A stretch of 64,000 nucleotides of DNA from Alphaproteobacteria bacterium (GCA_046297835.1 JBKBHI010000001.1:391354-455353), one strand, 5' to 3'; counted from the first letter of the stretch, positions 15,843 through 53,467 are shown. Notes: a model not told the origin generated them from the sequence alone. Numbers and translations: made by a program.

Positions 15843-15901
15843 GGGCTTGAGACGGGGAGATTGGCTGTGCTCGCAGTCTTCAGCGAACTCGTCTCCGCGC
15901 T

Positions 15902-15937
15902 AAATTCCCTGTTAATAGGGAATTTACAGGGAATTTT
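15902..15937. repeat. perfect palindrome AAATTCCCT-GTTAAT-AGGGAATTT plus a third AGGGAATTT half-site at the left edge of the accessory region
   Basis: Read directly at 15902-15925, with the third half-site at 15929-15937. Lies in a gene-free AT-rich spacer where base composition changes. Confidence 0.6.
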
Positions 15938-16089
15938 GCCAATTCTAGGGGTGGATTTCGCAGCACGCTAGCGCACAAGGTATTGGTTTATATATAATTT
16001 CTTAGATTTATCGCCTCGTTGAAACAGGGAAAAATATCGAATTAACAGCGAAGCATATCGACGAAGCAGGGTTTATTTGAAGAAGATGG

Positions 16090-16647
16090 TCAGCGGACAT
16101 ACCCGCGTAGCCTCGAATACCCCGCCCTCTGATCGGGTGACAGGATCTCCATCATCGTCAGGTGATAACGCAGATGGGCGGTGCGAAGTTGACCCTGGGC
16201 GGCGGCAATCCGAGCGACCAATGCCTCCATGGATTCTCGCGTAACGATTCGGTCAGCGAACACGCGGTCGAGTTCGGTTTCGCCGGCGATGACCTCTCCG
16301 CCGATAAACGCCGTCTCACTTTTCATCGCCGCGAGGAGCCCGGCCGCCCGCTCTTTTTGGTCCGCAGAGAGTTGCAGAGCATCCGCTAGTTCAAGCACAT
16401 GCGACGGGCCCGGATACCCATTCAGTTCGGCGGCCAGCGCAAGTGTCATGCCGCGCCCCGCCCTGAGGTCGGCGACCTGCTGATCTGACAGCGCTTTCAC
16501 GGTGCGGCTCTCCAAATCCGCGTAGGGCGACGCCCCGGTCACTGCCGGATTGGCTTCGTGGCCGACGCGGGGATGATGGTTCTGCGCGGATGCTTGGGCG
16601 ACGAATGTGACGGCAAGCAACGACAAAGCAAAGTACATGCGCAGCAT
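16090..16647 (-). CDS. CpxP/Spy-family (LTXXQ) periplasmic protein
   Basis: Signal peptide MLRMYFALSLLAVTFVAQASA. Repeated LxxxQ motifs (LSDQQ, LSADQ, LSPDQ). Confidence 0.6.
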   Translation of the reverse strand: MLRMYFALSLLAVTFVAQASAQNHHPRVGHEANPAVTGASPYADLESRTVKALSDQQVADLRAGRGMTLALAAELNGYPGPSHVLELADALQLSADQKERAAGLLAAMKSETAFIGGEVIAGETELDRVFADRIVTRESMEALVARIAAAQGQLRTAHLRYHLTMMEILSPDQRAGYSRLRGYVR

Positions 16648-16700
16648 GGTGAACTCCTGTTTTACGCATTTCATCTTGCCATGGTCCGTCTGCCCCGAGC

Positions 16701-17243
16701 ATGATCCGGATCATGTCTGAAATGATCGAATCGTTCTCGAAACTGGCCGAACGCGAGCAGGCGCTAGCTTCAGGAGACAACTTGTTCCGGCAAGGTGATT
16801 CCGTTCTGTCACTGTTCGTCGTAGCAAGCGGAGAGCTGCGGCTGGTCCGGCCGCTGCCACACGGGCCGCATCTTGTATTGCAGCGTGCCAGAGCTGGGAT
16901 CCTCCTGGCGGAAGCGTCTCTATTCGCCGAGCGGTATCATTGCGACGCGCTGGCAATCGAAGCCGCCCGTATCTTGGTCATACCCCGAAAGCGAGTTAAC
17001 GATGCTCTTGCCGCCGACCCCGCTCTAGCCCGTGCATGGGCCAAGCATCTGGCACACGAGCTCCAGCGCACGCGGGCGCAAGCCGAAATTCTCTCACTGA
17101 GAACATTGATACAAAGACTCGAGGCCTGGCTGGGTCTCAACGACAACGCCTTGCCTCCGAAAGGTCAATGGCGGCAAATCGCATCCGAAATCGGCGTGTC
17201 ACCGGAAGCGCTATACCGCGAGTTGGCTCGGCGCCGAGGGTAA
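16701..17243 (+). CDS. Crp/Fnr-family transcriptional regulator
   Basis: A cNMP-binding-like beta-roll (SGELRLVRPLPHG) followed by a C-terminal HTH (WRQIASEIGVSPEALYRELA). Confidence 0.7.
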   Translation: MIRIMSEMIESFSKLAEREQALASGDNLFRQGDSVLSLFVVASGELRLVRPLPHGPHLVLQRARAGILLAEASLFAERYHCDALAIEAARILVIPRKRVNDALAADPALARAWAKHLAHELQRTRAQAEILSLRTLIQRLEAWLGLNDNALPPKGQWRQIASEIGVSPEALYRELARRRG

Positions 17244-17385
17244 TCACAACGCCAAGCATTTCCTCGCGGTGATCTCTTCAACTTTGCAGACAGATTCGTC
17301 ATCGCCCAAATCGCGTCCCGAACCTGCATTTCCGCCTGTTATCAAAAATGTGATGACGTCCGTCGAAATTCCGCAATAGTCTCTC

Positions 17386-17793
17386 ATGATGCGGAAAACC
17401 CTCGCATATCTGCTGATCGTGGCCGTAGCCCTGATTTCCTATGGTCCAGCCAGCACTCCCATGTCCGCTGCGGCCGCCTCGCCCGCAAACGCGGATATGG
17501 CACCCATGCCGACACACGCTGATATGGCGTCCATGCCTGCTCACGCGGACATGGCCTCCTTGCCCTGCGCCGATCAACCCATGGGCACCGACCAACAGGG
17601 CACGAGGCCACCCTGCACCGCCGACTTCGGCAACTGCATGGCTCGGTGCGCGATATTGATCCAGCCGGCCGCGATGGCATATCAGTCCAACCAATATCCG
17701 AAACCTGTCGTCACCGCCTTCAATTGGGCGGTGCCGCCTACGGTCGCGGCTGCTCTCCCCTTCCGACCGCCCCGTTCCTCGATCCTCAAATAA
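17386..17793 (+). CDS. secreted Met/His-repeat protein, putative metal-binding (CopL/DUF2946-like?)
   Basis: Signal peptide. Three tandem 9-aa repeats (ADMAPMPTH / ADMASMPAH / ADMASLPC). Cys-rich tail (PPCTADFGNCMARC). Lies upstream of cusB. Confidence 0.5.
   Translation: MMRKTLAYLLIVAVALISYGPASTPMSAAAASPANADMAPMPTHADMASMPAHADMASLPCADQPMGTDQQGTRPPCTADFGNCMARCAILIQPAAMAYQSNQYPKPVVTAFNWAVPPTVAAALPFRPPRSSILK
17491..17571 (+). repeat. 3 x 27-bp imperfect tandem repeat inside the Met/His-repeat gene
   Basis: Repeats gcggatatggcacccatgccgacacac, gctgatatggcgtccatgcctgctcac and gcggacatggcctccttgccctgcgcc. Confidence 0.7.
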
Positions 17794-17896
17794 ATCTCGC
17801 GGCGCCGCCTGACGACTAGGCGGCTATCAGCACACGCATGCGGATCGCCTGATCGGCATGCCGCCACGCATGTGCGAACGCTATCGAGGATCGACT

Positions 17897-19429
17897 ATGA
17901 ACAAGATTTCAACCCTGATTGCCGGGGGCTTCACCGCTGTGCTCGCCCTGGGCATGATTCTTCTAAACGCCCCCGTTAACGCCGAAAGCCCGACATGGCA
18001 GGCGGTGAAGTCTGAGGTCGCCGTCGGGACATCCGTCCGACTGGAGGTGACGCTCAACGGGGCCACAGGCCCCATTACCGTGACGTCGGCTCGTCTCGAC
18101 ATGGGGCCTGATGGCATGGCGACGATGACCACGCGTATTAGTCCAATCGCGTCAACGACGCCTGGCGTGTTTGCGTTCGAAGCCGACCTTGTCATGGCCG
18201 GCCGCTGGGCACTGACCCTCTCGGCGAAGGTTGAGGGTCAGTCTCAGCCTGTGACGGGGATCGTCGTTTTCACGGCTGTCGAGAAGAAGGCGGGTGCAGA
18301 ATCAGTACCCACGCCAACTGGGGATCGGAAGCTCCTGTACTACCGCAACCCAATGGGCCTGCCGGACGTCTCGTCAATGCCAAAGAAAGATTCGATGGGG
18401 ATGGACTACATCCCCGTCTATTCCGACGAGGTCACTGGAATTGGGGGCGCCATTCGGATTGCCCCGGAACGAGTCCAGCGGGCCGGAGTGCGCACGGAGC
18501 TGGTGGCACCCCACGACCTAACTAGGACAATAAAGGCAGTTGCCACGATCACGCCCGACGAAAGCCGTCTCGGCATAGTAACAGCCAAGTTCGATGGCTT
18601 CGTTGAGCAACTGCTGGTCCCGCTGACTGGTAGCGAAGTTCGCGCTGGCCAGCCCCTCGTGAGGGTCTGGATTGAGAGTAAAGATATCCTGCAAAAGCAG
18701 GCTGATTTTCTTATTGCCCTTAAGCGTCCAGGCGAGGCCGAACAGGCGGAGAGAAACCTGCGCCTTTTCGGGATTTCCGATCAAGAGATTGCACAGCTAC
18801 GCAAGACGGGACAAGCCGTCCGGTCGGTGGTGCTCACTGCTCCCTCGAGCGGTACCGTGTTGGCAAAGCCTTCCGTCGTGGGCATGCGCTTTTCAGCGGG
18901 CGACACGCTGTTCCGAACAGCTGATTTGTCGACCGTCTGGGCGATGGCTCAGGTTTCCGAACGGGACCTGGGCCTCGTGCGCATCGCCCAGACTGCGCGA
19001 ATCACATTGAAGGCCTATCCGAACGCTCCCATCGAAGGTCGGGTTGCATTTATCTATCCGGAAATCGATATGCAGACCCGCACGGCAAGCGTGCGTATCG
19101 AGCTTCCAAACCGCGAGGGAATCCTGCGGAGCGGCCTGTATGCCGACGTCGCCATCGAAGCTCGGCCCGACAGCGGACCAACGCTCGCCGTGCCGGAATC
19201 CGCCATTATCGATAATGGCACGAAGCGCGTCGTCTTTGTCGACAAGGGCAACGGCATCTACGAGCCGCGCAAGCTGACGCTCGGTCAACGCGGGGGCGGA
19301 TATGTCCAAGTGCGCGACGGTCTGGCCGAAGGCGAACGGATCGTCGTCACGGGCAACTTCCTGATCGACGCCGAGAGCAACTTGCGCGCCGCCCTGACCG
19401 CCTTCACGGCCCCGGAGCAGTCGCAGTGA
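17897..19429 (+). CDS. cusB: RND efflux periplasmic adaptor, CusB-like, with an N-terminal extension
   Basis: Signal peptide. Conserved membrane-fusion-protein segments. Stop overlaps the cusA start. Confidence 0.8.
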   Translation: MNKISTLIAGGFTAVLALGMILLNAPVNAESPTWQAVKSEVAVGTSVRLEVTLNGATGPITVTSARLDMGPDGMATMTTRISPIASTTPGVFAFEADLVMAGRWALTLSAKVEGQSQPVTGIVVFTAVEKKAGAESVPTPTGDRKLLYYRNPMGLPDVSSMPKKDSMGMDYIPVYSDEVTGIGGAIRIAPERVQRAGVRTELVAPHDLTRTIKAVATITPDESRLGIVTAKFDGFVEQLLVPLTGSEVRAGQPLVRVWIESKDILQKQADFLIALKRPGEAEQAERNLRLFGISDQEIAQLRKTGQAVRSVVLTAPSSGTVLAKPSVVGMRFSAGDTLFRTADLSTVWAMAQVSERDLGLVRIAQTARITLKAYPNAPIEGRVAFIYPEIDMQTRTASVRIELPNREGILRSGLYADVAIEARPDSGPTLAVPESAIIDNGTKRVVFVDKGNGIYEPRKLTLGQRGGGYVQVRDGLAEGERIVVTGNFLIDAESNLRAALTAFTAPEQSQ

Positions 19430-22400
19430 TCGCTCGCCTCATTAGATGGTCGGCGTCCAACATCGTCCTGGTGCTGATAGGCAGCGTGTTCCTGACGCTT
19501 GCCGGCATTTACGGCCTGACCCGGCTTCCGCTCGACGCGCTTCCCGATCTCTCGGATACGCAGGTCATCGTCTACACGGAGTATCCCGGTCAGACGCCTC
19601 AGGTCATCGAAGACCAGGTCACATACCCTCTCACTACAGCAATGCTGAGCGTGCCGCGCTCGCGCGTCGTGCGCGGCTTCTCGTTCTTCGGCGTTTCCTT
19701 CGTTTACGTCATCTTCGAGGATGGCACCGACATCTATTGGGCGCGGAGCCGAGTCCTTGAATACCTCAACGTCGCGGCGAAGCGATTGCCGGCAGGCGTA
19801 ACGCCGAATCTGGGACCGGATGCCACGGGCGTCGGCTGGATTTACCAGTATGTCGTGAACGGCAAGGACTACGATCTTGCCGAACTTCGCTCCATACAAG
19901 ATTGGCAATTACGCTTCGGCCTTGCGAAAGCCGATGGCGTTGCCGAAGTGGCGAGCGTCGGCGGCTTTGTGAAGCAATACTCTATTGTCGTCGATCCCCA
20001 GCGGATGAGGGCGCTCGGCTTGACGCTAGAAGGCATTCGCGATGCGGTCCGAGCCAGCAATATGGACGTCGGCGGGCGGACGATCGAGCTCTCCGAGACC
20101 GAGTTTATGATCCGCGGCCGCGGCTATATCCAAAGTCTTCAGGACATCGAGCAGATCGTCTTGAAGGCCACCAACGGCGTGCCCGTAACCGTGCATGACG
20201 TAGCAAGGGTCGAACTCGTCCCGGACGAGAGGCGTGGCATTGCTGAATTAAATGGCGAAGGCGAAGTCGCCAGCGGCATTACGATCCAGCGCTATGGCGC
20301 CAATGCACTCGACGTCATCAAAAGCGTTAAGAACCGATTGGCTGATATCGCCTCGAGCCTTCCCGAAGGTGTGAACATCCTTCCAATCTATGATCGCTCG
20401 GTACTCATCGAGCGAGCCATCGAAACGCTCAGGTCCACGTTGATCGAAGAGAGCATCGTGGTGGCGCTGATCTGCTTCATCTTCCTTCTTCACGCGCGGA
20501 GTGCGCTGGTGGCGATCGTCACGATCCCGATCGGCATCCTCGCCGCGCTGGCCATCATGAACGTCCTGGGGATCGGCTCGAACATCATGAGCTTGGGCGG
20601 CATCGCGATCGCCATTGGCGCCATGGTCGATGCGGCGATCGTCATGATCGAGAACGCCCATAAAAGATTGGAACACGCCCCACCTGACATGCCGCGGACT
20701 GAGGTGCTGATCCGCGCGGCACAGGAGGTCGGCCCGGCGCTGTTCTTTAGCCTGCTGATCATCACCGTCTCGTTCTTGCCGATTTTCGCGCTGGAAGCCC
20801 AGGAAGGCCGGCTTTTCAAACCGCTCGCCTACACGAAGAGCTTCTCCATGGGCGCGGCCGCCTTGCTTTCAGTGACGCTAGTGCCAGCTCTGATGGTTCT
20901 ATTCATCCGTGGCAGAATCATTCCAGAAGCCCGCAATCCCCTCAACCGTCTATTGATCTGGCTCTACCGCCCGATCATTCGCCTAGTGCTGCAAGCGAAG
21001 TTCCTCACCATCGTTATCGCTGTGGCGATCCTCGCCGTATCGATCATTCCCGCGAAGCGGCTCGGCACGGAGTTCATGCCAAATCTCAACGAGGGCACAC
21101 TCATGTATATGCCCACGACCTTGCCCGGTATTTCGGTGACCAAGGCGGCGGAGTTGTTGCAAACCCAGAACAAGATCATCAAGACCTTCCCCGAGGTGAG
21201 CTCGGTCTTCGGCAAGGCAGGCCGCGCGCAGACGGCGACCGATCCGGCGCCGATGGAAATGTTCGAGACGATCATCAACTTGAAGCCCGAGACCGAATGG
21301 TCCGCCGGCATGACGGTGGACAAGCTGATCGCCCAGATGGATGCCGCCTTGCAGTTTGCTGGCGTCAGCAACGCCTGGACGATGCCTATCAAGGCGCGCA
21401 TCGATATGCTCTCGACTGGAATCCGCACCCCCGTGGGCGTCAAGATATTCGGAAAGGACCTCAAGGAGCTGGAGCGCCTTGCCCGCGAGGTAGAGACCAC
21501 GCTTCGCAAGGTCGCCGGCACTTCCAGCGCCTATGCCGAGCGGGTCAATAGCGGGTATTTCCTGGAGATCGTACCGGACCGAACGCAGATCGCCCGCTAT
21601 GGGCTGACGGTTCAGGACGTGCAGAACACGATCTCCATGGCTCTCGGCGCTGAAATTGTGACCACGACGGTAGAGGGCCGCGAACGATATGGGGTCGTGC
21701 TTCGCTATCCCCGCGACGTGCGAAGCGATACGGACGCCATCGCGTCCGAGGTTCTCGTCTCACTGCCGAATGGCTCGGCCATACCACTTGGCGAAGTCGC
21801 CACAATCCAGCGCACGCAGGGGCCGACATCCATCCGCACCGAGGATGGGCAACTCGTCGTCTATGTCTACGTCGACATCCGCGACCGCGACTTGGGTGGC
21901 TATGTCCGCGACGCTCAGAAACAGGTAGCCGAACAGGTTGCCTTCCCCGCCGGCTACTTCGCCACTTGGAGTGGCCAGTTCGAGTATCTGGAACGTGCCG
22001 AGGCCCGTTTGCAGATCGTGATCCCAGCCACTCTGCTGGTGATCTTCCTGTTGCTCTACCTGAACTTCCGCCGGATGTCGGATACGCTGATCGTCATGCT
22101 GTCGTTGCCATTTTCCTTGGTCGGCGGCGTTTGGTTCATGTACTGGGAGGGCTTCAACATGAGTGTGGCGGCCGCGGTCGGCTTCATCGCCCTCGCCGGC
22201 GTCGCTGCCGAAACGGGGGTGATCATGCTGGTCTATTTGCATCATGCCTTGGAGGAAGTGCGCGAGCATGCCCGATCGGAGGGCCGCATATTCACCAATG
22301 CAGATCTTCATCAGGCGATCATGACGGGAGCCGTCGAGCGCGTGCGGCCGAAGATGATGACTGTATGCGCCATCATGGCGGGTTTACTTCCCATTTTGTG

Positions 22401-22542
22401 GAGCACGGGCGTCGGCTCCGAGGTCATGCAGCGCATTGCCGTGCCAATGATCGGCGGAATGGTGTCGTCGACGATACTCACGCTTATCGTCATCCCAGCT
22501 CTCTTCGCGTTGATTCACCGACGCGACTTAGGAACTATTTGA
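19426..22542 (+). CDS. cusA: heavy-metal efflux RND pump, CusA/CzcA family
   Basis: 1038 aa. HME-RND hallmarks (conserved N-terminus MIxxxIxxSxxNxxxVL, 12-TM architecture, GAIAIAIGAMVDAAIVMIEN). Confidence 0.9.
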   Translation: MIARLIRWSASNIVLVLIGSVFLTLAGIYGLTRLPLDALPDLSDTQVIVYTEYPGQTPQVIEDQVTYPLTTAMLSVPRSRVVRGFSFFGVSFVYVIFEDGTDIYWARSRVLEYLNVAAKRLPAGVTPNLGPDATGVGWIYQYVVNGKDYDLAELRSIQDWQLRFGLAKADGVAEVASVGGFVKQYSIVVDPQRMRALGLTLEGIRDAVRASNMDVGGRTIELSETEFMIRGRGYIQSLQDIEQIVLKATNGVPVTVHDVARVELVPDERRGIAELNGEGEVASGITIQRYGANALDVIKSVKNRLADIASSLPEGVNILPIYDRSVLIERAIETLRSTLIEESIVVALICFIFLLHARSALVAIVTIPIGILAALAIMNVLGIGSNIMSLGGIAIAIGAMVDAAIVMIENAHKRLEHAPPDMPRTEVLIRAAQEVGPALFFSLLIITVSFLPIFALEAQEGRLFKPLAYTKSFSMGAAALLSVTLVPALMVLFIRGRIIPEARNPLNRLLIWLYRPIIRLVLQAKFLTIVIAVAILAVSIIPAKRLGTEFMPNLNEGTLMYMPTTLPGISVTKAAELLQTQNKIIKTFPEVSSVFGKAGRAQTATDPAPMEMFETIINLKPETEWSAGMTVDKLIAQMDAALQFAGVSNAWTMPIKARIDMLSTGIRTPVGVKIFGKDLKELERLAREVETTLRKVAGTSSAYAERVNSGYFLEIVPDRTQIARYGLTVQDVQNTISMALGAEIVTTTVEGRERYGVVLRYPRDVRSDTDAIASEVLVSLPNGSAIPLGEVATIQRTQGPTSIRTEDGQLVVYVYVDIRDRDLGGYVRDAQKQVAEQVAFPAGYFATWSGQFEYLERAEARLQIVIPATLLVIFLLLYLNFRRMSDTLIVMLSLPFSLVGGVWFMYWEGFNMSVAAAVGFIALAGVAAETGVIMLVYLHHALEEVREHARSEGRIFTNADLHQAIMTGAVERVRPKMMTVCAIMAGLLPILWSTGVGSEVMQRIAVPMIGGMVSSTILTLIVIPALFALIHRRDLGTI

Positions 22543-22552
22543 GGAAACGATC

Positions 22553-23059
22553 ATGCTCTCGCCGTCGCCTGCGAATGTCGCCGCTCGAAAACGCCGTACG
22601 ACGATCTACATCGCCGTTTCCGCGTCTATCGCTCTCGTCATCGCTGTCTTTATGTTTTGGCTATACCCGTCCCTAAGCAGAATTTCTACGGGCCAGCAAA
22701 GCAAGATCGATCCTAGCGACCGAAAACAGGTGGCTTTGGGCAAAACGGTCTATGTAGAGCGTTGCGCCGTCTGCCACGGTCGCAATTTGGAAGGCCAACC
22801 TAACTGGAGGGAACGCAAATTAGACGGAAAGCTTCCGGCGCCGCCGCACGATGCGTCTGGGCATACTTGGCACCACGCAGACGAGCAGCTTTTCCTGATC
22901 ACGAAGGAAGGCTTGGCGGCGATTGTGCCTGGCTACGAGAGCGACATGCCGGCCTATAAAGGGATTCTCAGCGATCAGGAGATCGCGGCGGCGCTCGCCT
23001 ACATTAAGAGCACATGGTCCGCCGACATCCGTGCACGTCAGCCTCAGGCCCTAAAATAG
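22553..23059 (+). CDS. membrane-anchored mono-haem cytochrome c
   Basis: N-terminal transmembrane segment and a single CAVCH haem-binding motif. Lies 11 bp after cusA. Confidence 0.65.
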   Translation: MLSPSPANVAARKRRTTIYIAVSASIALVIAVFMFWLYPSLSRISTGQQSKIDPSDRKQVALGKTVYVERCAVCHGRNLEGQPNWRERKLDGKLPAPPHDASGHTWHHADEQLFLITKEGLAAIVPGYESDMPAYKGILSDQEIAAALAYIKSTWSADIRARQPQALK

Positions 23060-23150
23060 AGCGGACTAAAAATGCTCGCTTCGCGGTTTGGGCGCCCTCA
23101 CATCAAAAGCATTAGCGTTTGGGCGGCGCCGAAGCGCCGCCCAACATCGT

Positions 23151-23342
23151 TTATGAAGGTGTGTAGCCCGCTTCGGCGATAGCTTTTTTAGCCTCGGCCT
23201 CGCTAATTTCGCCTTCGACGGAGACGGTACGCGACGGCAAGTCGATCCGCACTTTGGCTGCAGGAGCCACACTCTGGATCGCCCTAGTAATGACGGACAC
23301 GCAATGTCCGCAAGTCATGTCCTGAACGTTAATCTCTGCCAC
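23151..23342 (-). CDS. copZ: CopZ-like heavy-metal-associated copper chaperone
   Basis: 63 aa with an MTCGHC motif in an HMA fold. Confidence 0.8.
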   Translation of the reverse strand: MAEINVQDMTCGHCVSVITRAIQSVAPAAKVRIDLPSRTVSVEGEISEAEAKKAIAEAGYTPS

Positions 23343-23374
23343 TTTGGCCTCCTATGGTGAGGGTGGGGCACAAC

Positions 23375-23405
23375 GGATGAGGCTTCCCACCCTGGGAAGG
23401 TCAAT
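23375..23405 (-). promoter_or_regulatory. CueR/MerR-type promoter (TTGACC, 19-bp spacer with dyad CTTCCCA-N3-TGGGAAG) reading towards copZ
   Basis: Dyad read at 23384-23400. TTGACC on the minus strand at 23400-23405. 19-bp spacer. Confidence 0.5.
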
Positions 23406-23428
23406 TGCTTCCGTGTGATTTTTTCCGT

Positions 23429-23459
23429 TTGACCTTCCTATCGTTGGAAGGTTCATACC
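23429..23459 (+). promoter_or_regulatory. CueR/MerR-type promoter (TTGACC, 19-bp spacer with dyad ACCTTCC-N7-GGAAGGT, then CATACC) for copA
   Basis: Strongly resembles the E. coli PcopA architecture (TTGACCTTCC...GGAAGGTT). Lies about 80 bp upstream of copA. Confidence 0.6.
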
Positions 23460-23537
23460 TCATGGCACTCGGCCTTATAACGGAGAGAAATCATACAATC
23501 GCCACAGAGCATTTCCCTAGATATCCCAATAAATGGA

Positions 23538-26054: not shown

Positions 26055-26089
26055 TGTCTAGAGAGGTCAACAGGGCGGCTTGGTCCATT

Positions 26090-45021: not shown

Positions 45022-45035
45022 CCGCTTATCCTAAT

Positions 45036-45052
45036 GCTCCCATGTCGGGAGC
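45036..45052. promoter_or_regulatory. operator-like perfect palindrome GCTCCC-ATGTC-GGGAGC (copy 1)
   Basis: Read directly. Lies 14 nt upstream of the higB start codon, just before its AGGA ribosome-binding site. Confidence 0.6.
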
Positions 45053-45085
45053 TATTTTATAGACGAGTGATCCACGCTTGTATAT

Positions 45086-45102
45086 GCTCCCAATACGGGA
45101 GC
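45086..45102. promoter_or_regulatory. operator-like perfect palindrome GCTCCC-AATAC-GGGAGC (copy 2)
   Basis: Read directly. Lies inside the spacer of a putative plus-strand promoter (TTGTAT...TTTAAT) that would read into the downstream 3-gene operon. Confidence 0.6.
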
Positions 45103-45125
45103 ACTTTAATCCAGTGAGGTGGTTC

Positions 45126-45590: not shown

Positions 45591-46219
45591 ATTTATTCTC
45601 TTACGTCGTAGAGCACGATCTTGGGTTCGCTCCGAATCCATTTCACGGATTTTGCACGCTTGCTTGTTGCAAGCCGGAGATCCGTAAAAAAGCGAAAGAG
45701 GGTGACTACATAATTGGCACCGGTGCAACAAGGCCGGGGCTTCTCGGGCACATCACCTATTGGATGCGTGTGGATGAGATTCTGACCTTCGATGAATATT
45801 GGAGTGACCGCCGCTTCCGTTACAAGAAGCCCTACATGGAAGGCACTACCATGTTGCGCTACGGCGACAACATTTATCACCGAAGCGGCGGTAAAGATTT
45901 TCAGCAAGAGGATTCATTCCACAGCCATGAGGATGGCAGCCTTTCTCGTGGTGATTTAAAGCGAGATACCCAAAAGACGGAGAGGGTTCTTATAGGGCGT
46001 GACTTTTCGTATTGGGGGCGTAACGGAATACTGTTGCCGGAACACCTGCAGTGCCTTGTGAAAAAAGGACCTGGGCATAAGTGTCGATTCACTGAAGAGC
46101 AGATAGCTATGTTTCATGCTTGGTTGAGCAATCAGCGTGAACGTGGCTTTAAGGGGGAGCCGGCTCATTGGCAATTTATTGGACAGCTCAAGCGCCGGCC
46201 TTCCCGGGCTCGGAGGTGA
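45587..46219 (+). CDS. Nmad2-like (nucleotide-modification-associated domain 2) protein
   Basis: The N-terminus MNLFSYVVEHDLGFAPNPFHGFCTLACCKPEIRK matches, from memory, the conserved start of the Nmad2 family. The start overlaps the upstream stop (ATGA). Confidence 0.5.
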   Translation: MNLFSYVVEHDLGFAPNPFHGFCTLACCKPEIRKKAKEGDYIIGTGATRPGLLGHITYWMRVDEILTFDEYWSDRRFRYKKPYMEGTTMLRYGDNIYHRSGGKDFQQEDSFHSHEDGSLSRGDLKRDTQKTERVLIGRDFSYWGRNGILLPEHLQCLVKKGPGHKCRFTEEQIAMFHAWLSNQRERGFKGEPAHWQFIGQLKRRPSRARR

Positions 46220-46222
46220 TAG

Positions 46223-47881
46223 ATGAGGCCTATCGACTACGACCAATTCGTTCGCAAAACCGATCAATATTCTTTGAAGGCCCCCAAGGAGCGTCATGCA
46301 ATTGCTTTGTATGGGCTTGTGGGCGAGATCGGCTCTTTAATCTCGGCCATAAAAAAGAAAATATTGGCCGAGGGTGGTGAGGCTGATTGGGATCAACCAA
46401 ATAAAGAGATCAAAGAAGAGATAGGGGATGTGCTTTGGTACTGCTACTCGCTTTCTCAAATCGTCAATGCGACATATTTTGATATTCTAACGAACGATAT
46501 TTCAGTCCTAAGACGCGAGATCGAGGGAGGCAACGAACGGGCTGAGAAAATTAGTGCGGCGCTCGCGGCGCTTGATCCAAAAAGTAAGAACGAATTTCTT
46601 TCAGCCGCGGCGCTCTTTCCTATTTCAAATGACTTTTCATTTGATGCTTACCAAGCGCTTGCATTCAAAACTGCAAGAACGGACGGAATAATCCTTCTCG
46701 AGGTTTGCTTGGCTGTCTTGCCGCAATTAGGTGCGGAGCTTTTGCGCTCGACACTTCCCGAAGTGGAGTTGACCCTTAATAAAAATATTGCCGACCGTGC
46801 GCCCAACGTTGTTTTGGGTGAGGTGGCTTGGCATCTATCTGCAATCTCAAGCCTCTATAATTTATCGCTAAATGACGTTGTCGATTTTAATTGTCAGAAA
46901 GTAAGTTTCAGATCGGAGAGGGGGAATCCTGCCTCTCTTCATGATGAGGGACGAAAGGAGCAAGAGCAGTTTCCTCGAAAATTTAGCATCACGTTTGTCG
47001 GTATTGAGAAGGGCCTATCAAGGATGTACTTCGAAGGCCATCGACTGGGAAATGACCTAACAGATAATGCGAAAGAGGATGATGGTTATCGTTTTCATGA
47101 CGTGCTTCACCTGTCGCTCATTGGGCATCTAGGCTGGTCGCCAGTTTTTAGAGGTTTTATGAAGAAGAGGCGTCCCGACGTTGATGAGGTCGAGGATGGT
47201 GGCCGGGCTAAAGTGGTTGAGGAATTGGTTATCAAGGCCATTCACTCTGAAGGAGTGAGTCAGGCGAGGGAATCAGGCAGATGCTCTGTTGGCACTCCGA
47301 TGCGTTTGTTTCCTGAGAAAAGCACCATTCCCTTCAGGCTTTTGAAAACCATAGATTTATGGGTTGAAGATCTCGAGGTCCGCCAGAACAGATTCTGGGA
47401 ATGGGAGGATGCAATTCATGAAGGTTGCGAGATTTTCTTTAAGCTGTGTGAGCATGGCCAAGGCACTGTGCACGTAGATTTAAAAAATCGCAGTCTGACT
47501 TTTGAGTCTTTGGTAACGCCTGGCGTTCAGGGGTTAACTGTTGGGCTTGGCATGGGAGTAGGTGATGCCAGCGCAGGAGGCATACTTACTGAGGTGGATA
47601 AGACTTTCGCAGAAGGGCTGTCTGGTCTCGCTCAGGTGGTAGCAGCAAAGCGAGCGCTATTCGAAGCACTGGGATTGTCGAACCCGCCGGTCTCAATGTG
47701 GTTGCAGGTTGATATTCGCGTGGTCGACGGAAATAAAATATCTGTGAGTGCCAGGGGCGACGTGCAGGAGCGCATATGGAGCATGCAAGTCGTCGACTAC
47801 AAAGCTGCTTTCGTCAATATGACTGATAACGTGTTGTGCACTATCGCTGCGATTGCAGATGTTGAAGATCTAAGAAAATGA
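46223..47881 (+). CDS. fusion protein: N-terminal MazG-like all-alpha NTP pyrophosphohydrolase domain plus about 440-aa uncharacterised region
   Basis: HAIALYGLVGEIGSL...EIKEEIGDVLWYCYSL fits the MazG/HisE EExxE/D signature. The remainder has no recognisable motif. Begins 3 bp after the previous stop. Confidence 0.55.
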   Translation: MRPIDYDQFVRKTDQYSLKAPKERHAIALYGLVGEIGSLISAIKKKILAEGGEADWDQPNKEIKEEIGDVLWYCYSLSQIVNATYFDILTNDISVLRREIEGGNERAEKISAALAALDPKSKNEFLSAAALFPISNDFSFDAYQALAFKTARTDGIILLEVCLAVLPQLGAELLRSTLPEVELTLNKNIADRAPNVVLGEVAWHLSAISSLYNLSLNDVVDFNCQKVSFRSERGNPASLHDEGRKEQEQFPRKFSITFVGIEKGLSRMYFEGHRLGNDLTDNAKEDDGYRFHDVLHLSLIGHLGWSPVFRGFMKKRRPDVDEVEDGGRAKVVEELVIKAIHSEGVSQARESGRCSVGTPMRLFPEKSTIPFRLLKTIDLWVEDLEVRQNRFWEWEDAIHEGCEIFFKLCEHGQGTVHVDLKNRSLTFESLVTPGVQGLTVGLGMGVGDASAGGILTEVDKTFAEGLSGLAQVVAAKRALFEALGLSNPPVSMWLQVDIRVVDGNKISVSARGDVQERIWSMQVVDYKAAFVNMTDNVLCTIAAIADVEDLRK

Positions 47882-48964
47882 ATCGGCAATCCGTCGATTG
47901 ATTTTCCATTTCGGTGGATACCATGGAGCAAGCAAAGAGCCAGCACTCGTATATTTCTGTTTAATTCGAGTGCGGCCGGCTATCCCTCCATATTCTGGAA
48001 AAGCGACGCGTGCATACTTAGAGATTTCGCAAAAAATATTCTGGCAGTCGATCAGCTTGAGGGCGCGTCCCCATAGCGATTTGAAATTAATTTCTAGATT
48101 AGAAAAATGATACTCTTGATTGTCCCGCATGTAGCGAATTACGTCGGCGGGATCGAGCTTTGCGTCGCTTTGAAAGCATTTTGAGATGCCGTCAAGAGCT
48201 CCGGGGCCGGCCATTACAAAGTCATCCTCGCTGAAATTTGTGAGGGTGCTGTAATTTAAATCAGTCGCGAATTGGTAAGCTAAAAATGGCCCAATCGAAG
48301 GTGCCGATAGGAGCAGTTTAAAAGCATCTGACATGCTTCGGCACTCGGACAGGCGAATTGAGAAACCATCTTTGATTAGCTGCTCAAGCATGCGCAGGTG
48401 GTTTTGATGCTTTAGCGGGTGGCCAAAAACATTCCCTGCGGATGGCATGATGTAAGCGGCGGAATATATCCGTTCACCCTTGGCCATATGCCGCGACAAA
48501 ACTTTATCGAAAAGATCGTAGTTAAAAGTTTCCCAAGTGAGCTTTCCGAATTCCGCTTCTAGAAGCTTCCAAGTTTCGATTTTGTTAAACAACTTGAAGA
48601 GGAGAATTCGAAAAAATAGATCGTTTCTCGAGTCCGGTAAATCGTCTCTGTAAATGACATCTCGAATAAGAAACTGGCTTACGCGATCGGATGCCCGATA
48701 CGTATTCGTAAACTTAAAGCTTTTTAGAATGGGGTCGTTGGTTAGTGCGGTGTTTGTCCGGTCTAAGCGACGGAAGAAAATATTCTGACGTTCTGCAGCA
48801 AACCGCCAATACGCATAAAACACGGGAGTAGTAAGAACTTTTTGTCCCGCAATCGTTATGGCTTCAGATGCGGGGCTGCTCACCTTGTTGCTGAAATCGA
48901 CATCGAGCTGAAGTGAATCAGCACTCGTTGATTTTTGCGAGGCATTGGTAGATTTGTATTTCAT
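47870..48964 (-). CDS. hypothetical 364-aa protein (candidate DNA-base-modification enzyme?)
   Basis: Convergent with the MazG-fusion gene and overlapping it by 12 bp. No confident family assignment. The idea of an aGPT-pyrophosphorylase / hypermodification-type protein is suggested only by neighbourhood. Confidence 0.45.
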   Translation of the reverse strand: MKYKSTNASQKSTSADSLQLDVDFSNKVSSPASEAITIAGQKVLTTPVFYAYWRFAAERQNIFFRRLDRTNTALTNDPILKSFKFTNTYRASDRVSQFLIRDVIYRDDLPDSRNDLFFRILLFKLFNKIETWKLLEAEFGKLTWETFNYDLFDKVLSRHMAKGERIYSAAYIMPSAGNVFGHPLKHQNHLRMLEQLIKDGFSIRLSECRSMSDAFKLLLSAPSIGPFLAYQFATDLNYSTLTNFSEDDFVMAGPGALDGISKCFQSDAKLDPADVIRYMRDNQEYHFSNLEINFKSLWGRALKLIDCQNIFCEISKYARVAFPEYGGIAGRTRIKQKYTSAGSLLAPWYPPKWKINRRIADSFS

Positions 48965-48981
48965 ATTTGCAGTGCAAAACG

Positions 48982-48995
48982 TTTTTTTGGGGGGG
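48982..48995. repeat. T7G7 homopolymer pair next to a near-palindrome TTTGCAGTGCAAA
   Basis: Read directly in the upstream region of the 364-aa gene, at the boundary with the umuC remnant. Confidence 0.8.
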
Positions 48996-49075
48996 TGAGG
49001 ATTTATAGCATTTTGTCCCGTTGGAGCGATTAATAAGTCGGGAGATATGCGTTTGAACAGGTAACTATTAGGGCC

Positions 49076-49590
49076 GTGACGCGCTCGTTCGGTCGGGCTG
49101 TGACTATGCTCGACGAAATGCGGGAGGCCGTTAGCTTCTATGCGACGCGCGCAGGGGAGAAGCTACGTCGCGCAAATCAGGCGGCCGGCTATCTCAGCAT
49201 GTTCATGCACACGAATCGGTTCAACGGCGATCCTAGCCGCAGCGCTTCGGCCGTCGTTCGCTTCCCTGAGCCGACCAACGACACCGGCGAGCTAGTGGCG
49301 GGCGCCCTACGCGTTGTTGAGTCGATTTGGCGCGACGGCTTCCGATCTCAAAAGCGGGCGTGATTACCACGGACCTTGTGCCGGCCGGCGAAGGGCAAGC
49401 TTCGCTGTTCATGGAGAAGCGCCGCGATCTGCGACTCATGATCGCTATAGATAAGCTCATTGCCAAGATGGGGCGAGGGACAGTCATTACCGCCGTAACC
49501 GGCATTCGGCGCGGGTGGTTCTTAAAGGCCGCGCATCATTCGCCCCCGTTCATACGGGCGGGCGCTCGTCGCGTCGAGACGAAAAGCGCG
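49076..49590 (+). pseudogene. umuC: 5'-truncated, frameshifted remnant of Y-family polymerase gene umuC
   Basis: Two frames carry the UmuC C-terminal ('little finger') region: ...MLDEMREAVSFYATRAGEKLR...PTNDTGELV... and ...AGVITTDLVPAGEGQASLFMEKRRDLRLMIAIDKLIAKMGRGTV... The catalytic N-terminal roughly two-thirds is absent. Frames switch near 49340. Confidence 0.6.
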
Positions 49591-49593
49591 GGA

Positions 49594-50901
49594 CTAAGCG
49601 AGCAGAGCTTCCTCGTCGCGCATATCGGTGAACTTACGGCCGGTCTCAGCGTGTACGGCATCCAGGCCCATCGCAATCAGCCTTTCGATGATGACGTCGC
49701 AATAGGCAGGGTCGAGCTCAATGCCGTAGCCGGCACGTCCGGTCTTTTCCGCGGCGACCAACGTCGTTCCGCTGCCGCAGAAAGGGTCGAGCACGATGCC
49801 GCCGCGGTTCGAGCAATCCAAGATAGCGTCAGCGACCAGAGAGACCGGCTTCACAGTCGGGTGCGAAGCGAGGTCCTTCATCCTGTCCTTGCCGAAGCTG
49901 TTGGCGCCCGCATAGGTCCAGACATTCGTCCGGTTGCGCCCGTGCTTGCCGAGCTCTACGTTATTGATGTGGGCGGCCGTGCCGTTCTTGAAGACGAACA
50001 CGCATTCGTGCTGCGAACGGTAGAGGGATCCCATCCCGCCGTTCGTCTTCACCCAGACGCACATGTTCTTCACTTCGCTATAAGCGCTTCCGGCGATCAC
50101 CATCTCGCCAAGGTGCCGCCAGTCGATGCAAATGTAGTGGATCGAACCATCCGTGCTGTGCTCAACCAGCAAGTTAAAGACGGTAGACAAGAAGCTCGTG
50201 AACTCAGGCGATGTCATTTCCCCGGACGCCATCGCAAACTCTCGGTGCTGAGTTTGGCCCAAGCCGGAAACGTGCCCCTGGATCGGGACGTTGTAAGGAG
50301 GGTCAGTGAAGACCAGGTCCGCCTTCGCGCCGGCCAGAAGCCGCTCGTAGCTTTCCGGCTTGGTGGCATCGCCGCAAAACAGCTTGTGCGGGCCGATGAG
50401 CCAAAGGTCACCCGGATTCGTGATCGCCGAGCTATCGAGCTTAACCGCGGGAATCTGCTCTCCGAGATTGTTCGAGGCATTCTGCTCGTTGATCAGAACA
50501 TCAATGTCGGCAGCATCGAAGCCCGTGACGGTCAAGTCGAGATCGGGGGCGATCTCTTCGAGTTCGATGAACTCCAAGGCCAACAGCTCACGGTCCCAAC
50601 CCGCTTGCTCAGCAAGGCGGTTATCCGCGATGACGTAAGCCCGGATTTCGGCCTCCGAGAGATCTTCGCGTCTGAGGATGGGGATCAGCGGCATGTTCAA
50701 GAGCTTGGCTGCTTCGACACGGCCGTGGCCGGCTATGATGACGTTCGTGCCGTCGACTAGGACGGGCACAGTGAAGCCGAAGCGCTTGATGCTATCGGCA
50801 ATCTGCTGAATCTGCTTCTTCGAGTGTGTTCGCGGGTTGCGCTTGCGGGGATGCAGATCTCCCGGGGAGCAATAGGAAATGCTCAGCAGCGACATTGTCA
50901 C
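49594..50901 (-). CDS. ParB-like nuclease domain fused to an N6/N4 DNA methyltransferase
   Basis: N-terminal ParB/Srx-like domain (RKRNPRTHS...IIAGHGRVEAA). Methyltransferase domain with DPPY (FTDPPYN) and SAM-binding FCGSGTT. Confidence 0.8.
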   Translation of the reverse strand: MTMSLLSISYCSPGDLHPRKRNPRTHSKKQIQQIADSIKRFGFTVPVLVDGTNVIIAGHGRVEAAKLLNMPLIPILRREDLSEAEIRAYVIADNRLAEQAGWDRELLALEFIELEEIAPDLDLTVTGFDAADIDVLINEQNASNNLGEQIPAVKLDSSAITNPGDLWLIGPHKLFCGDATKPESYERLLAGAKADLVFTDPPYNVPIQGHVSGLGQTQHREFAMASGEMTSPEFTSFLSTVFNLLVEHSTDGSIHYICIDWRHLGEMVIAGSAYSEVKNMCVWVKTNGGMGSLYRSQHECVFVFKNGTAAHINNVELGKHGRNRTNVWTYAGANSFGKDRMKDLASHPTVKPVSLVADAILDCSNRGGIVLDPFCGSGTTLVAAEKTGRAGYGIELDPAYCDVIIERLIAMGLDAVHAETGRKFTDMRDEEALLA

Positions 50902-51003
50902 CTCCAGTCTGAGTGAAACTCAGCGGAGGGTAGTGGGGTGCCTACCTATGATCTTTCCGAACAAACACGCGATTTAAAATGAAGGGTGAAAAGTCGGTGT
51001 TTC

Positions 51004-51477
51004 CTATGTTTGACGAGCTCGGGACACAAGGTTGAGCACATGCCTGACATCGCATTGCGGGAAGACTTTCATTCGCCTTACTAATTCAACGACCATAAAG
51101 GCTGCCTGCTCGTGAAACGCCCGATCACGGGCATCTCCTATTAGTAGGAAATCCCAACCGTCCAGGGTCGGATCTTCATTTTGTTTTTTTAGTAGATCGG
51201 AGAACGTAGCGTAAAACGCGTAGATGAAGCTGTTGCGTGTGGCTGCTTGGCTGTCCTTAGGCCTACCGCGGGGACGCTTAATCTTGCCAAGAGCAAGCTC
51301 CGATAAATAGGACATCAGGCCAGTAGGTAATGGCTCGCCTGCGTAAGCGTTAATAAGCTTGGCCAATTCCTCAGGCTCTATATATCGCTCACGAGGATTA
51401 CTGGAATTAAACCGTTGCTCAATCATCTGCCATTCGACGTCTCGGTAGACGTTTTTGGGCTTTTTCTCGTCGCTCAT
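51004..51477 (-). CDS. hypothetical protein co-transcribed with an XRE regulator
   Basis: 157 aa. Start overlaps the XRE gene stop by 4 bp. Confidence 0.4.
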   Translation of the reverse strand: MSDEKKPKNVYRDVEWQMIEQRFNSSNPRERYIEPEELAKLINAYAGEPLPTGLMSYLSELALGKIKRPRGRPKDSQAATRNSFIYAFYATFSDLLKKQNEDPTLDGWDFLLIGDARDRAFHEQAAFMVVELVRRMKVFPQCDVRHVLNLVSRARQT

Positions 51478-51710
51478 GATTTTGAGGGTTGGCGCTTTCG
51501 CACCGGCCGTACGAGATCCAGATAATTAACGCCTAAGGCCTGGGCAATCTCGTAAATGCTCACGATGGTCGGATTGGTCTTTCCGACCTCGATATTGCTT
51601 AAATACTGCTGGGTGAAACCGGACAATTCCGAGAGGCGTTCTTGGGTCATGCCCTTTTGGTGCCGTATCCGCGCCAAATTCAGGCCGACCAATTTGCGCA
51701 TGTCCGTCAT
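51474..51710 (-). CDS. XRE-family HTH transcriptional regulator
   Basis: HTH QERLSELSGFTQQYLSNIEVGKTNPTIVSIYEIAQAL. Confidence 0.7.
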   Translation of the reverse strand: MTDMRKLVGLNLARIRHQKGMTQERLSELSGFTQQYLSNIEVGKTNPTIVSIYEIAQALGVNYLDLVRPVRKRQPSKS

Positions 51711-51845
51711 GCGCGTAGATCAGCCCAATACACACTATAAGTTTATCAACTATAATATGTAAACAGACATATGTCTGATTCCTGACTGGCTTTCTAGGCC
51801 GGACCACGCGACTTGTGGCTCGTGAACCACAGGGGAATTACCTAA

Positions 51846-52373
51846 ATGTCTACCGCGATGACCGCTTCGCCGTCGGCCCATTCCAGCATGCTTGAAAAGG
51901 TCTTGGAGCATCTTCTGGTGGGTGAAATCCTCCGCTATCTCTGGCTGCGGGGGCATCGCGATATCGAGGTTCTACGAGGTGAGGTGGACAATGCGGGGTA
52001 CGACATCGCACTGGAGGTTGGTGGCATCCTTCGTCATGTGCAGCTCAAGGCTTGCTTTCGCGGTGCCACGACCAATGAGGTCGGAATCAATATCGCTCTA
52101 GCTCGTAAACCGTCGGGCTGCGTGATCTGGCTGCACTATGATCCGCAGTCTTTGGCTCTGACCCCATACCTCTGGTTCGGCGGTGCTCCAGGTGAGCCTC
52201 TGCCGAGCCTGGGAGAGCGGGTCGGTAGGCATTCGAAAGCCAACAGCGAAGGGGTGAAGGCGCCGCGTGCCAACGTGCGGCTCTTGAGCCGCAAGCGGTT
52301 CGAAAGCCTAGCCACCATCGATGAGTTGGTGGCTAGGCTGTTCGGCGCGATCAATCTTCCTTCTTTGCCTTAG
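51846..52373 (+). CDS. hypothetical protein, possible PD-(D/E)xK nuclease-like core
   Basis: GYDIALEVGGILRHVQLK resembles a D...E.K motif. Weak. Confidence 0.35.
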   Translation: MSTAMTASPSAHSSMLEKVLEHLLVGEILRYLWLRGHRDIEVLRGEVDNAGYDIALEVGGILRHVQLKACFRGATTNEVGINIALARKPSGCVIWLHYDPQSLALTPYLWFGGAPGEPLPSLGERVGRHSKANSEGVKAPRANVRLLSRKRFESLATIDELVARLFGAINLPSLP

Positions 52374-52908
52374 TCATCTGATGCCTCTTGAGGAAAGCGC
52401 GACCAAGTCGCTTTTCCTTCGCCCTTCTCTTGCGGATATAGGTCGCATTCTTCACGGCAATCTGCTGCGCAGCAGATTCTAGCGCCTTGATCGCAAACTG
52501 GATGCGGTCATTGATATCTTCTCGTTCGTCGTTCGACTTGGCCTGCTGCATGTCAGGGATCAAATTGAGCGAATTGGCGATCAGCGAAGAGATTACGGCG
52601 TGCTCCTTTTCGATCTCCTTTTTCAGGGCGAGCAACGCGCGCGTGTCGTTGCCGTTCATAGCCTGCTGATACAGCTTGTGATTGAGTGCCTCACCGCGAG
52701 TCATGAGCACGGTCTTGCCGGCGATCTTGATCTCGACAATGCCCTTACCGAAGACATGCGCATTTTCGTCATAGCCCACAGTGTCGTGCTGGCGCGGCCG
52801 ACCATCCTCGTTACCGCTGCTGCCCTTCAACCAGCGTCCGCGCTCATCGCGTTTTGGCTTTTTTCGAACGGGGGGAGGCGGCGGCTTGGGCATCATGTCT
52901 TCGAACAT
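52351..52908 (-). CDS. DUF5681-like phage-associated protein
   Basis: N-terminal RGRWLKGSSGNEDGRP resembles the G-SGNP-GRPKG motif of DUF5681 proteins found in prophages. Confidence 0.4.
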   Translation of the reverse strand: MFEDMMPKPPPPPVRKKPKRDERGRWLKGSSGNEDGRPRQHDTVGYDENAHVFGKGIVEIKIAGKTVLMTRGEALNHKLYQQAMNGNDTRALLALKKEIEKEHAVISSLIANSLNLIPDMQQAKSNDEREDINDRIQFAIKALESAAQQIAVKNATYIRKRRAKEKRLGRAFLKRHQMTKAKKED

Positions 52909-53393
52909 CTTCTTCCTCGTCTATGGTTGAGTTGAAGAAGACGTTTTGCTTGTTTATGGAGGGCGAAGCCTTCCGAACAAACTATCGATTTAAAATGAGG
53001 ACTAGGCTGGAAGAGGAAGGCTTGGTTTTCCGCGCGACGACCATTTCAGCGCGAGGATTGCTCTTGATCCGCGCCTGATATGCACGTGATACTCACGTGT
53101 TATGGTTTTGCATCAAACCCTATATAACCTATTGAAATGGCGACAATATCGGCGCTGTAAGATGAAGTGATCGCCCTAAAATGCTTCGCACCAGGAAATG
53201 GCGGTTCAATCTCGAATTTAAAGATGTCGAGTGCGGGAATGCTCAGCAGAGAATCCAACCCCGCAAGGCGCTAAATATGCCTCTGAACCTCTGGGATTAA
53301 ACCTCCGGAGAAGGTCGATACCCCGCTAAGCGTCGGAATTGTCGGCTCGTTTCGCGAGCCATCCGGAGAGATAAGTTTTTGAAAGAAGAGATT

Positions 53394-53467
53394 GGCTGGG
53401 GGACTAGGATTCGAACCTAGACTAGCGGAGTCAGAGTCCGCGGTCCTACCGTTAGACGATCCCCCAG
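53394..53467 (-). tRNA. tRNA-Gln (anticodon CUG)
   Basis: Manual fold of the reverse complement gives acceptor TGGGGGA/TCCCCCA, a D-arm, an anticodon stem GCGGA/TCCGC with loop CTCTGAC (anticodon CTG), a T-arm CTAGG-TTCGAAT-CCTAG, discriminator G and an encoded CCA. Length 74 nt. Confidence 0.85.

Follow-up and report, generated by a model that had tools for sequence, protein, structure and literature searches.

We analyzed a 64,000-nucleotide stretch of DNA from an alphaproteobacterium (GCA_046297835.1, JBKBHI010000001.1:391354-455353), hereafter the window, and consider it probable that positions 15868 to 53387 are one integrative island, inserted at the extreme 3' end of a tRNA-Gln(CUG) gene, whose own gene pair, encoding a DUF2924 protein and a large serine recombinase (LSR), integrates and excises it. 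The integrase of the island is most likely the serine recombinase itself. The original prediction for this DNA had described an island of about 37 kb ending at the tRNA-Gln gene, with stepwise changes in composition and no tyrosine integrase. This much proved real: the region is horizontally acquired, compositionally mosaic, and located at the tRNA 3' end. Its GC content is 0.565, compared with 0.654 in the left flank (1-15856) and 0.685 in the right flank (53467-60700), and the steps inside it span 0.485 to 0.646.

The edges can be placed exactly, at 15857/15868 and 53387/53398, giving a size of 37.5 kb. They are marked by a perfect 11-bp direct repeat, GAGATTGGCTG, for which a pattern search of the 64 kb returned two exact copies only, both on the plus strand. 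TGGCTG in the right copy is the reverse complement of the terminal CAGCCA of the tRNA, so that the last six nucleotides of the tRNA are covered, including the encoded CCA, and the tRNA's 3' end points toward the island. This tRNA-Gln(CTG) gene is the single tRNA gene of the window, and an Rfam scan of the window gave no match besides it. The displaced copy of the tRNA 3' end that marks the far end of such islands is represented here by the 11-bp repeat with its six tRNA nucleotides, which is below the typical repeat length; the left copy is short because merely six nucleotides of the tRNA take part. We roughly estimate a probability of about 1e-3 that an 11-mer of this kind would occur again within the 250-bp left boundary. 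The earlier statements that no attachment repeat is detectable and that the left boundary (15843-16090) holds no copy of the tRNA 3' end were thus wrong. Two matches to the core with one mismatch, at 30292 and 50701, both lie inside genes.

Both ends of the island carry noncoding arms. On the right, 484 bp of noncoding DNA separate the DUF5681 gene from tRNA-Gln. On the left, locus L164 carries the same Cus-type cargo in a different context, and its similarity to the window starts at 16099, the left arm being absent. The left arm contains the palindrome with three half-sites that had been correctly described before, at 15902-15936: AAATTCCCT (15902-15910), 6 nt, AGGGAATTT (15917-15925), 2 nt, and AGGGAATTT again (15928-15936), the sole exact copies in the window. 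Its 9-bp arms form a perfect inverted repeat around a 6-bp spacer, a third half-site follows as a direct copy, and the whole lies 35 to 70 bp inside the left end. It sits downstream of both adjoining genes and is therefore no promoter operator for either; one candidate function is the binding of an accessory protein, for instance DUF2924, and alternatively it could be a hairpin.

The same island was found in a second strain. Comparison contigs from freshwater metagenome PRJNA261364 and run SRR31360863, retrieved through identical LSR and 175-aa protein sequences, match the window at 100% over 35205-43455 and at 99.83% over 39594-52458. One contig runs through the tRNA into ppx/rlmE and is identical to the window over 52000-53482, and from 53483 it is about 6 to 8% diverged. 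On the left, a 98-kb contig from the same sample (L080), reached through a 93%-identical TauD, has tctC-tauD genes 87% identical to those of the window and then matches the window at 100.000% over 15859-18889. The island parts recovered in the second strain (15859-18889, 35205-43455, and 39594-53466) are thus 99.8 to 100% identical, while its flanks are 87 to 94% identical, with identity changing within the left repeat and, on the right, immediately after the tRNA gene. The occurrence of the same island in two hosts whose flanks are 6 to 13% diverged argues for recent mobility. On these comparisons, the island is real and precisely bounded, and it looks recently mobile.

We give almost no credence to the view that there is no discrete mobile element, the region being either an ancestral variable segment swapped by homologous recombination or a chimera of metagenome assembly. 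The comparators are indeed all metagenome assemblies, and in one relative, L162, the identity of the island (84 to 99% by segment) overlaps that of the flanks (about 87%), so that long residence is possible there. Against this view, the identity switch on the left coincides with the 11-bp core, and the left neighbor of the island in L080 is unrelated sequence, which leaves no flanking homology to recombine through. A locus from a second sample, L163, has the same gene order at this junction, and the identical stretch across the right junction (about 95 nt) is shorter than the k-mer of 127 that we take from the contig names.

L080 also reveals tandem accretion at one attachment core. The order is tauD, GAGATTGGCTGGGG, a 6.6-kb KaiB/KaiC/PAS-kinase/EAL element, GAGATTGGCTG, a 330-bp remnant, GATTGGCTG, and the island, with the core copies at 10892, 17493, and 17828 of the contig; the outermost copy extends to 14 nt. 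The copies of this array share the core ATTGGCTG, and the remnant aligns with the right-end arm of the window. The array confines the crossover to the 9 bp GATTGGCTG. The 6.6-kb element itself (10906-17492 of L080) encodes KaiB, KaiC, a hybrid histidine kinase of the PAS type, and two response regulators, one of them with an EAL domain, but no recombinase, and seems to be a circadian-clock-like signaling module carried as a nonautonomous island.

The DUF2924 gene (40266-40751) and the serine recombinase gene (40748-42451) are, as the original prediction held, the sole recombinase genes found; none of the open reading frames (ORFs) scanned encoded a tyrosine integrase, a transposase, a relaxase, or a phage structural protein. 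The two reading frames overlap by 4 bp, and the pair can be described as translationally coupled. The N-terminal resolvase catalytic domain of the LSR (PF00239, E value of 2.9e-38, residues 10-162) matches the catalytic domain of TP901-1 integrase (E value of 8e-21), with the motif YTRKSS visible. It is followed by a Recombinase domain (PF07508, E value of 9.5e-11, residues 184-278) and by a C terminus (residues 442-562) matching phrog_14161, annotated as "recombinase." The protein also matches phiC31 integrase and another 500-aa integrase and, judged by sequence, looks like an ordinary large serine recombinase. The DUF2924 protein gave no match to solved structures; the RAMA DNA-binding domain has been reported to match Pfam DUF2924 in part (PMC11342252).

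We scanned relatives of the LSR in two collections, comprising 80 metagenome loci and 80 viral-contig loci. A DUF2924 gene lies upstream of the LSR gene in 153 of the 160 loci. In the metagenome set (LSR identity of about 43 to 54% in full-length matches; DUF2924 upstream in 74/80), 57 loci extend 500 nt or more beyond the LSR stop codon, and 15 of them have an intact tRNA gene downstream, as do 4 shorter contigs, at 219 to 402 nt. In the viral set (about 42 to 58% in full-length matches; DUF2924 upstream in 79/80), 10 loci have a tRNA gene downstream, at 239 to 563 nt. In these 29 loci the intact tRNA lies 219 to 563 nt 3' of the LSR gene on the opposite strand, its 3' end always toward the LSR; the tRNAs that adjoin family LSRs are those for Ser, Gln, Thr, Asp, Phe, Met, and Ala. 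The same arrangement occurs in a complete replicon of an isolate genome, Sphingobium sp. TomMM7A, where DUF2924-LSR is followed by tRNA-Gln(UUG) 225 nt downstream. The window LSR has the same orientation relative to its tRNA as these 29 canonical loci, at a distance of 10.9 kb versus 0.2 to 0.6 kb there, 1.8 kb in L162, and 6.6 kb in another relative, L171. The LSR family thus seems to target tRNA 3' ends, and no missing integrase need be invoked.

Two further patterns were seen among these loci. L124 (positions 1-3150) has a tRNA-Ser 3' fragment about 550 nt upstream of DUF2924 and an intact tRNA-Ser 285 nt after the LSR, which suggests a minimal element of about 3 kb with little beyond the DUF2924-LSR pair. 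Most family members have a short hairpin, whose stem varies and whose loop is GGAA-rich (CCGnGGAAnTGnCGG-like), 50 to 75 nt away from the tRNA 3' end; on the tRNA strand, a T-run often comes after it. A CGTCTC box lies about 105 nt out. These features were compared in the LSR-tRNA spacers of L084 to L171 and in window 53310-53345, where the hairpin covaries as judged by eye, not by pair counts. Its most economical reading is a probable terminator between the convergent LSR and tRNA genes; a role as a recombination site was rejected.

It has been documented that tyrosine integrases dominate at tRNA gene sites (PMC4383910, PMC7192596), and the window LSR adjoins neither attachment site. If the repeats had been made by a tyrosine integrase since lost or acting in trans, the DUF2924-LSR pair would be cargo or an unrelated resolvase, and the lack of LSR-type symmetry in the reconstructed attachment sites would find an explanation. 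We regard this as highly improbable. The window, L162, and L171 all carry a family LSR, with no tyrosine integrase in the regions seen; the 29 loci described above have the LSR close to the tRNA 3' end in one orientation; and for the phage AcaML1, which shares this gene pair, the published listing gives 10-bp repeats and a target presumed to be a tmRNA gene (PMC3826726).

L162 (GCA_044226095.1) and L171 show further elements at the same tRNA-Gln. The LSR of L162 is 87% identical to that of the window, its flanks are about 87% identical, and its metal block is 92 to 93% identical. It is without window 37476-40780, so that DUF2924 is gone and the LSR N terminus is fused, and it is also without 42452-43295 and 43446-52436. 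Its order is LSR, a 105-aa ORF, DUF5681, right end, and tRNA-Gln, all within 1.8 kb, with the core GATATTGGCTG and a right end 92 to 99% identical to that of the window (100-bp bins). It keeps homologues of window 43337-43445 and 52437-53392, which flank a block that it lacks. Another candidate sequence in L162, AGATTGGCTG at position 539, has the counterpart AGAGTGGCCT at the homologous place in the window and looks like chance. L171, on an 849-kb contig, has an LSR 56 to 57% identical in the same ppx/rlmE/host-attachment locus. Its order is h175-like, XRE, h157-like, ParB-methyltransferase, an intact UmuC, DUF3489, DUF2924, and LSR; other cargo amounting to 5.6 kb separates the LSR from DUF5681, after which comes tRNA-Gln(CUG). 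Of the 80 viral-contig loci, 42 also have a ParB-methyltransferase close to the DUF2924-LSR pair, usually upstream. L162, L171, and the viral loci imply that DUF5681, ParB-methyltransferase, UmuC, and XRE form the backbone of the LSR family and not an older, separate island. In this light the tRNA-proximal umuC remnant, ParB-methyltransferase, XRE regulator, and DUF5681 gene, noticed earlier as decayed mobile-element hallmarks, are present, but as backbone genes of the family. The end formed by DUF5681 and attR appears to belong with the LSR, and the low-GC defense block seems to occupy a variable slot between LSR and DUF5681.

These two relatives bear on the serial insertion proposed before, in which an older tRNA-Gln island (about 43.4 to 53.4 kb) lost its integrase and a serine-recombinase element (about 16 to 43.4 kb) landed beside it later. 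Accretion at this very site is documented in L080, and that part of the proposal stands. Further in its favor are the composition step at about 43.4 kb, the inversion of the backbone block by the tRNA relative to L171, and two metagenome loci with a tandem pattern (L105 and L125), where a fragment of a tRNA 3' end appears about 290 nt past the LSR, then extra DNA, and then the intact tRNA. Attachment cores had been expected at about 16.0 and 43.4 kb. The first is there, at 15857-15867, but no intact copy lies near 43.4 kb, where the only candidate for an internal third core is a 9/11 match, AGATTGGCT at 43188-43196, intergenic and 740 bp downstream of the LSR. It lies in DNA that L162 lacks and is probably due to chance, about 0.4 such matches being expected per 37.5 kb by our own estimate, and no right-end-like sequence precedes it. 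L162 joins the LSR to DUF5681, the right end, and tRNA-Gln in 1.8 kb while keeping the homologues on either side of the missing block; the genes of the supposed older island are family backbone genes; and the recovered parts of the island in the other strain are 99.8 to 100% identical with cores at the two ends. Two independent insertions, which fit neither L162 nor L171, are therefore unlikely in our judgment.

Under the preferred reading of a single island, the DUF2924-LSR pair would integrate and excise the island by a crossover inside the 9- to 11-bp core. As the core consists of CAGCCA plus 5 nt of trailer, the tRNA would be regenerated without a long duplicated fragment. Excision would leave a circle with the junction ...GTTTTTGAAAGAAGAGATTGGCTGTGCTCGCAGTC... 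and a repaired empty site ...GAGACGGGGAGATTGGCTGGGGGACTAGG.... The family backbone would comprise ParB-methyltransferase, UmuC, XRE, two small proteins, DUF2924, LSR, and DUF5681, while the metal resistance genes (about 24 kb) and the defense block (about 5.5 kb) would be cargo gained at different times, hence the stepwise composition. The Pfam and PHROG matches of the island ORFs include no relaxase, type IV secretion, or coupling protein, as expected of an integrative and conjugative or integrative and mobilizable element, nor were capsid, tail, terminase, or satellite packaging genes of a prophage or phage satellite matched. With no transfer genes of its own, the island must rely on a helper for movement between cells.

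Several observations weigh against the single-island reading. Neither an excised circle, an empty site, nor enzymatic activity was observed. A TauD scan of the genome collection for an unoccupied tauD/tRNA-Gln junction, the empty site anticipated among relatives, returned 73 loci, the best 74% identical, none of them beside ppx or tRNA-Gln; exact-sequence look-ups of TauD, Ppx, and the Crp-family protein also gave no match, probably owing to differing start codon calls. Ungapped and gapped tests for dyad symmetry in the reconstructed attP, attB, attL, and attR gave results no better than those of shuffled and random controls. A distance of 10.9 kb separates the LSR gene from attR, whereas it is 0.2 to 0.4 kb for distant relatives and 1.8 kb for L162. 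The zinc ribbon PF13408 is below threshold in this LSR, though recorded for several homologues. In L171, a left repeat was sought and not found, and the left boundary was not located. Compared with L171, and with the upstream location that the ParB-methyltransferase usually has, the window block 49076-52373 (UmuC'-ParB-methyltransferase-h157-XRE-h175) is both inverted and displaced, and the island may have arisen by fusion of two related elements. The comparison sequences for the island are all metagenome contigs or metagenome-assembled genomes.

Table 1. Coordinates of the island, its attachment sites, and its gene modules in the window
Feature	Position	Strand	Remarks
attL, left attachment core, direct repeat GAGATTGGCTG	15857-15867	+	14 bp 3' of tauD stop; identity to the other strain's island begins at 15859 (100%)
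Left-end noncoding arm	15868-16089	.	Holds palindrome 15902-15936; absent from L164
Metal cargo 1	16090-28251	.	Metal_resist periplasmic protein, Crp-family regulator, 135-aa protein, CusB/CusA-type RND pump, cytochrome c, heavy-metal-associated (HMA) chaperone, P1B ATPase, OmpR-type response regulator, histidine kinase; includes L163 gene calls
Acyltransferase-3 pseudogene fragments	28919-29502	-	Intact gene (337 aa) in relative L162
Metal cargo 2	29640-39914	.	CopB, multicopper oxidase, cupredoxin, MerR, second P1B ATPase, LspA, PCuAC, SCO1, DsbB, DsbA-like protein, UppP; Pfam matches of L002 and L162 used
DUF2924 protein	40266-40751	+	E value of 1e-42; stop overlaps LSR start by 4 bp
LSR, 567 aa, putative integrase	40748-42451	+	Resolvase and Recombinase domains; phrog_95 (integrase)
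205-aa predicted lipoprotein, no family match	42473-43090	-	Absent from L162
Poly-G tract, left edge of variable block	43440-43455	+	16 here; 9 in the other strain; 6 in L162
Low-GC (0.485) defense-type cargo	43559-48964	.	PD-Lambda-2 B and A, TIR-like, Nmad2, MazG+MazG_C, HMUDK_hel protein; absent from L162
Rearranged backbone block	49076-52908	.	UmuC remnant, ParB-methyltransferase, 157-aa protein, XRE, 175-aa protein, DUF5681; all with L171 homologues
UmuC C-terminal remnant, IMS_C domain only	49076-49363		Intact UmuC at this place in L171
ParB_N + N6_N4 methyltransferase	49594-50901		Domain scan
XRE regulator	51474-51710		Domain scan
DUF5681 protein	52351-52908		PHROG match of unknown function only
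Right-end noncoding arm	52909-53387	.	92-99% identical to L162 (100-bp bins); diverged remnant in L080
attR, right attachment core GAGATTGGCTG	53388-53398	+	Overlaps tRNA 3' end (CAGCCA)
tRNA-Gln(CUG), integration target, intact	53393-53466	-	ARAGORN; Rfam 60 bits

The features of the island are listed in Table 1. It is flanked on the left by genes for a TctC-family binding protein and the TauD dioxygenase (ending at 15842) and, to the right of the tRNA, by ppx, rlmE, and a host-attachment gene. The poly-G tract that borders the variable block on its left lies directly 5' of an ATG; its length of 16 recurs in SRR31360863, contigs of SRR2568014/15 have 9, and two assemblies break at or beside it. 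The tract may act as a slipped-strand switch or be a hotspot of recombination. Within the low-GC cargo, a four-gene cluster adjoining PD-Lambda-2 (45078-48964) encodes a TIR-like protein (ThsB-like, E value of 3e-10), Nmad2, MazG+MazG_C, and a stand-alone protein with the helical domain of 5-hydroxymethyldeoxyuridine (5-hmdU) DNA kinase. We take these domains to belong to phage thymidine hypermodification pathways; here they sit in a cellular island. PADLOC had no model for three of the four genes, and the cluster may be an undescribed defense or DNA modification system. A 28-nt direct repeat (TTCCGAACAAAC..CGATTTAAAATGA, at 50955-50982 and 52971-52998, 89% identical and conserved in L162) lies about 55 to 65 nt upstream of the minus-strand starts of ParB-methyltransferase and DUF5681. 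The two genes probably share it as an operator or promoter, on which the XRE regulator perhaps acts.

The flanks hold variable segments of their own. Another small insertion of low GC content (0.488), located at 60768-62374 after the segment syntenic with L162, encodes a helix-turn-helix and M78-peptidase (ImmA/IrrE-like) protein and a DUF4411 protein, resembling a toxin-antitoxin or defense pair. In the left flank, about 10.5 kb (3072-13634, with a COX1-type oxidase subunit and a GMC oxidoreductase) have no counterpart in L080, which carries other genes there, so that this flank itself appears mosaic between strains.

Among phages, the best match is AcaML1, a temperate phage of Acidithiobacillus caldus, whose Gp4 (38% identity) is a DUF2924 homologue directly upstream of an LSR homologue formed by Gp3 and Gp2 (49% identity), the pair being at a prophage end. 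It is listed with the attB "srrA," presumably ssrA, the tmRNA gene, and with 10-bp direct repeats (PMC3826726), compared with 11 bp here. It differs in being a 59-kb inducible prophage with structural genes, which the island lacks, in the listed target gene, in an LSR annotated as split large and small subunits, and in an integration module at the element end instead of 10.9 kb inside. In the Wolbachia phage WO, a DUF2924 gene immediately precedes the recombinase gene in a WO-like region of wStri (PMC10299305). The WO gp31 and resolvase genes are about 41 to 43% identical to this LSR, but WO is a full prophage. Its integration targets are not known to include tRNA-Gln.

The Dehalococcoides ssrA islands (DsiB/DsiA) are the closest system described, alongside SCCmec as regards recombinase genes located inside the element. 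In the former, too, a serine-recombinase integrase targets a small stable-RNA gene at its 3' end, and the islands show short bordering direct repeats (20 bp), tandem arrays, some elements without a recombinase of their own, a ParB-domain gene in the integration module, and adaptive cargo (PMC3146451). However, DsiB is CcrB-like and paired with a second small serine recombinase instead of DUF2924, insertion is in the T-loop of tmRNA and not at the tRNA CCA end, and the hosts belong to another phylum (PMC3146451). SCCmec (CcrAB/CcrC) resembles the island in its midelement LSR genes, its insertion, accompanied by short direct repeats, into a conserved housekeeping gene at the 3' end, its composite or tandem elements movable as a whole, and its resistance cargo without transfer genes (described in part in PMC3146451). 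It differs in its protein-coding target rlmH (orfX), in having two recombinases and no DUF2924 partner, and in its Firmicutes hosts. Classical tyrosine-integrase islands at tRNA genes (the Islander signature, PMC4383910) share the intact tRNA at one end, the displaced 3'-end copy at the other, the deviant composition, and the resistance and defense cargo. Here, in contrast, the recombinase is a serine recombinase, the repeat has just six tRNA nucleotides, and the integrase gene lies away from the att site.

In reviews, serine integrases are not known to target tRNA genes, and the TIGER study of 2020 placed 14 of 297 putative serine-integrase elements at t(m)RNA genes and called for experimental proof (PMC7192596). 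We lean somewhat toward the view that DUF2924-coupled LSRs are a widespread clade of serine integrases specialized on tRNA/tmRNA 3' ends, with DUF2924 as an obligatory partner for site recognition or directionality. If true, such a clade would contradict the published view that tyrosine integrases alone specify tRNA genes, and it would offer serine integrases with naturally conserved, predictable genomic landing sites. Serine integrases are preferred for genome engineering because they are unidirectional and need no host factors, and a clade aimed at universally conserved tRNA ends with an uncharacterized partner would be both useful and mechanistically informative. The window and the 160 related loci provide a concrete, testable family, with a DUF2924-LSR operon convergent with a tRNA gene and short cores at the tRNA end, including one element that looks recently mobile. 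The island accounts for a joint package of Cu/Ag/Zn/Cd-type resistance and phage defense common to diverged freshwater alphaproteobacterial strains. As a cargo carrier it is ordinary; its interest lies in being a clear case of a serine-integrase family that appears to target tRNA genes and to have a partner protein of its own.

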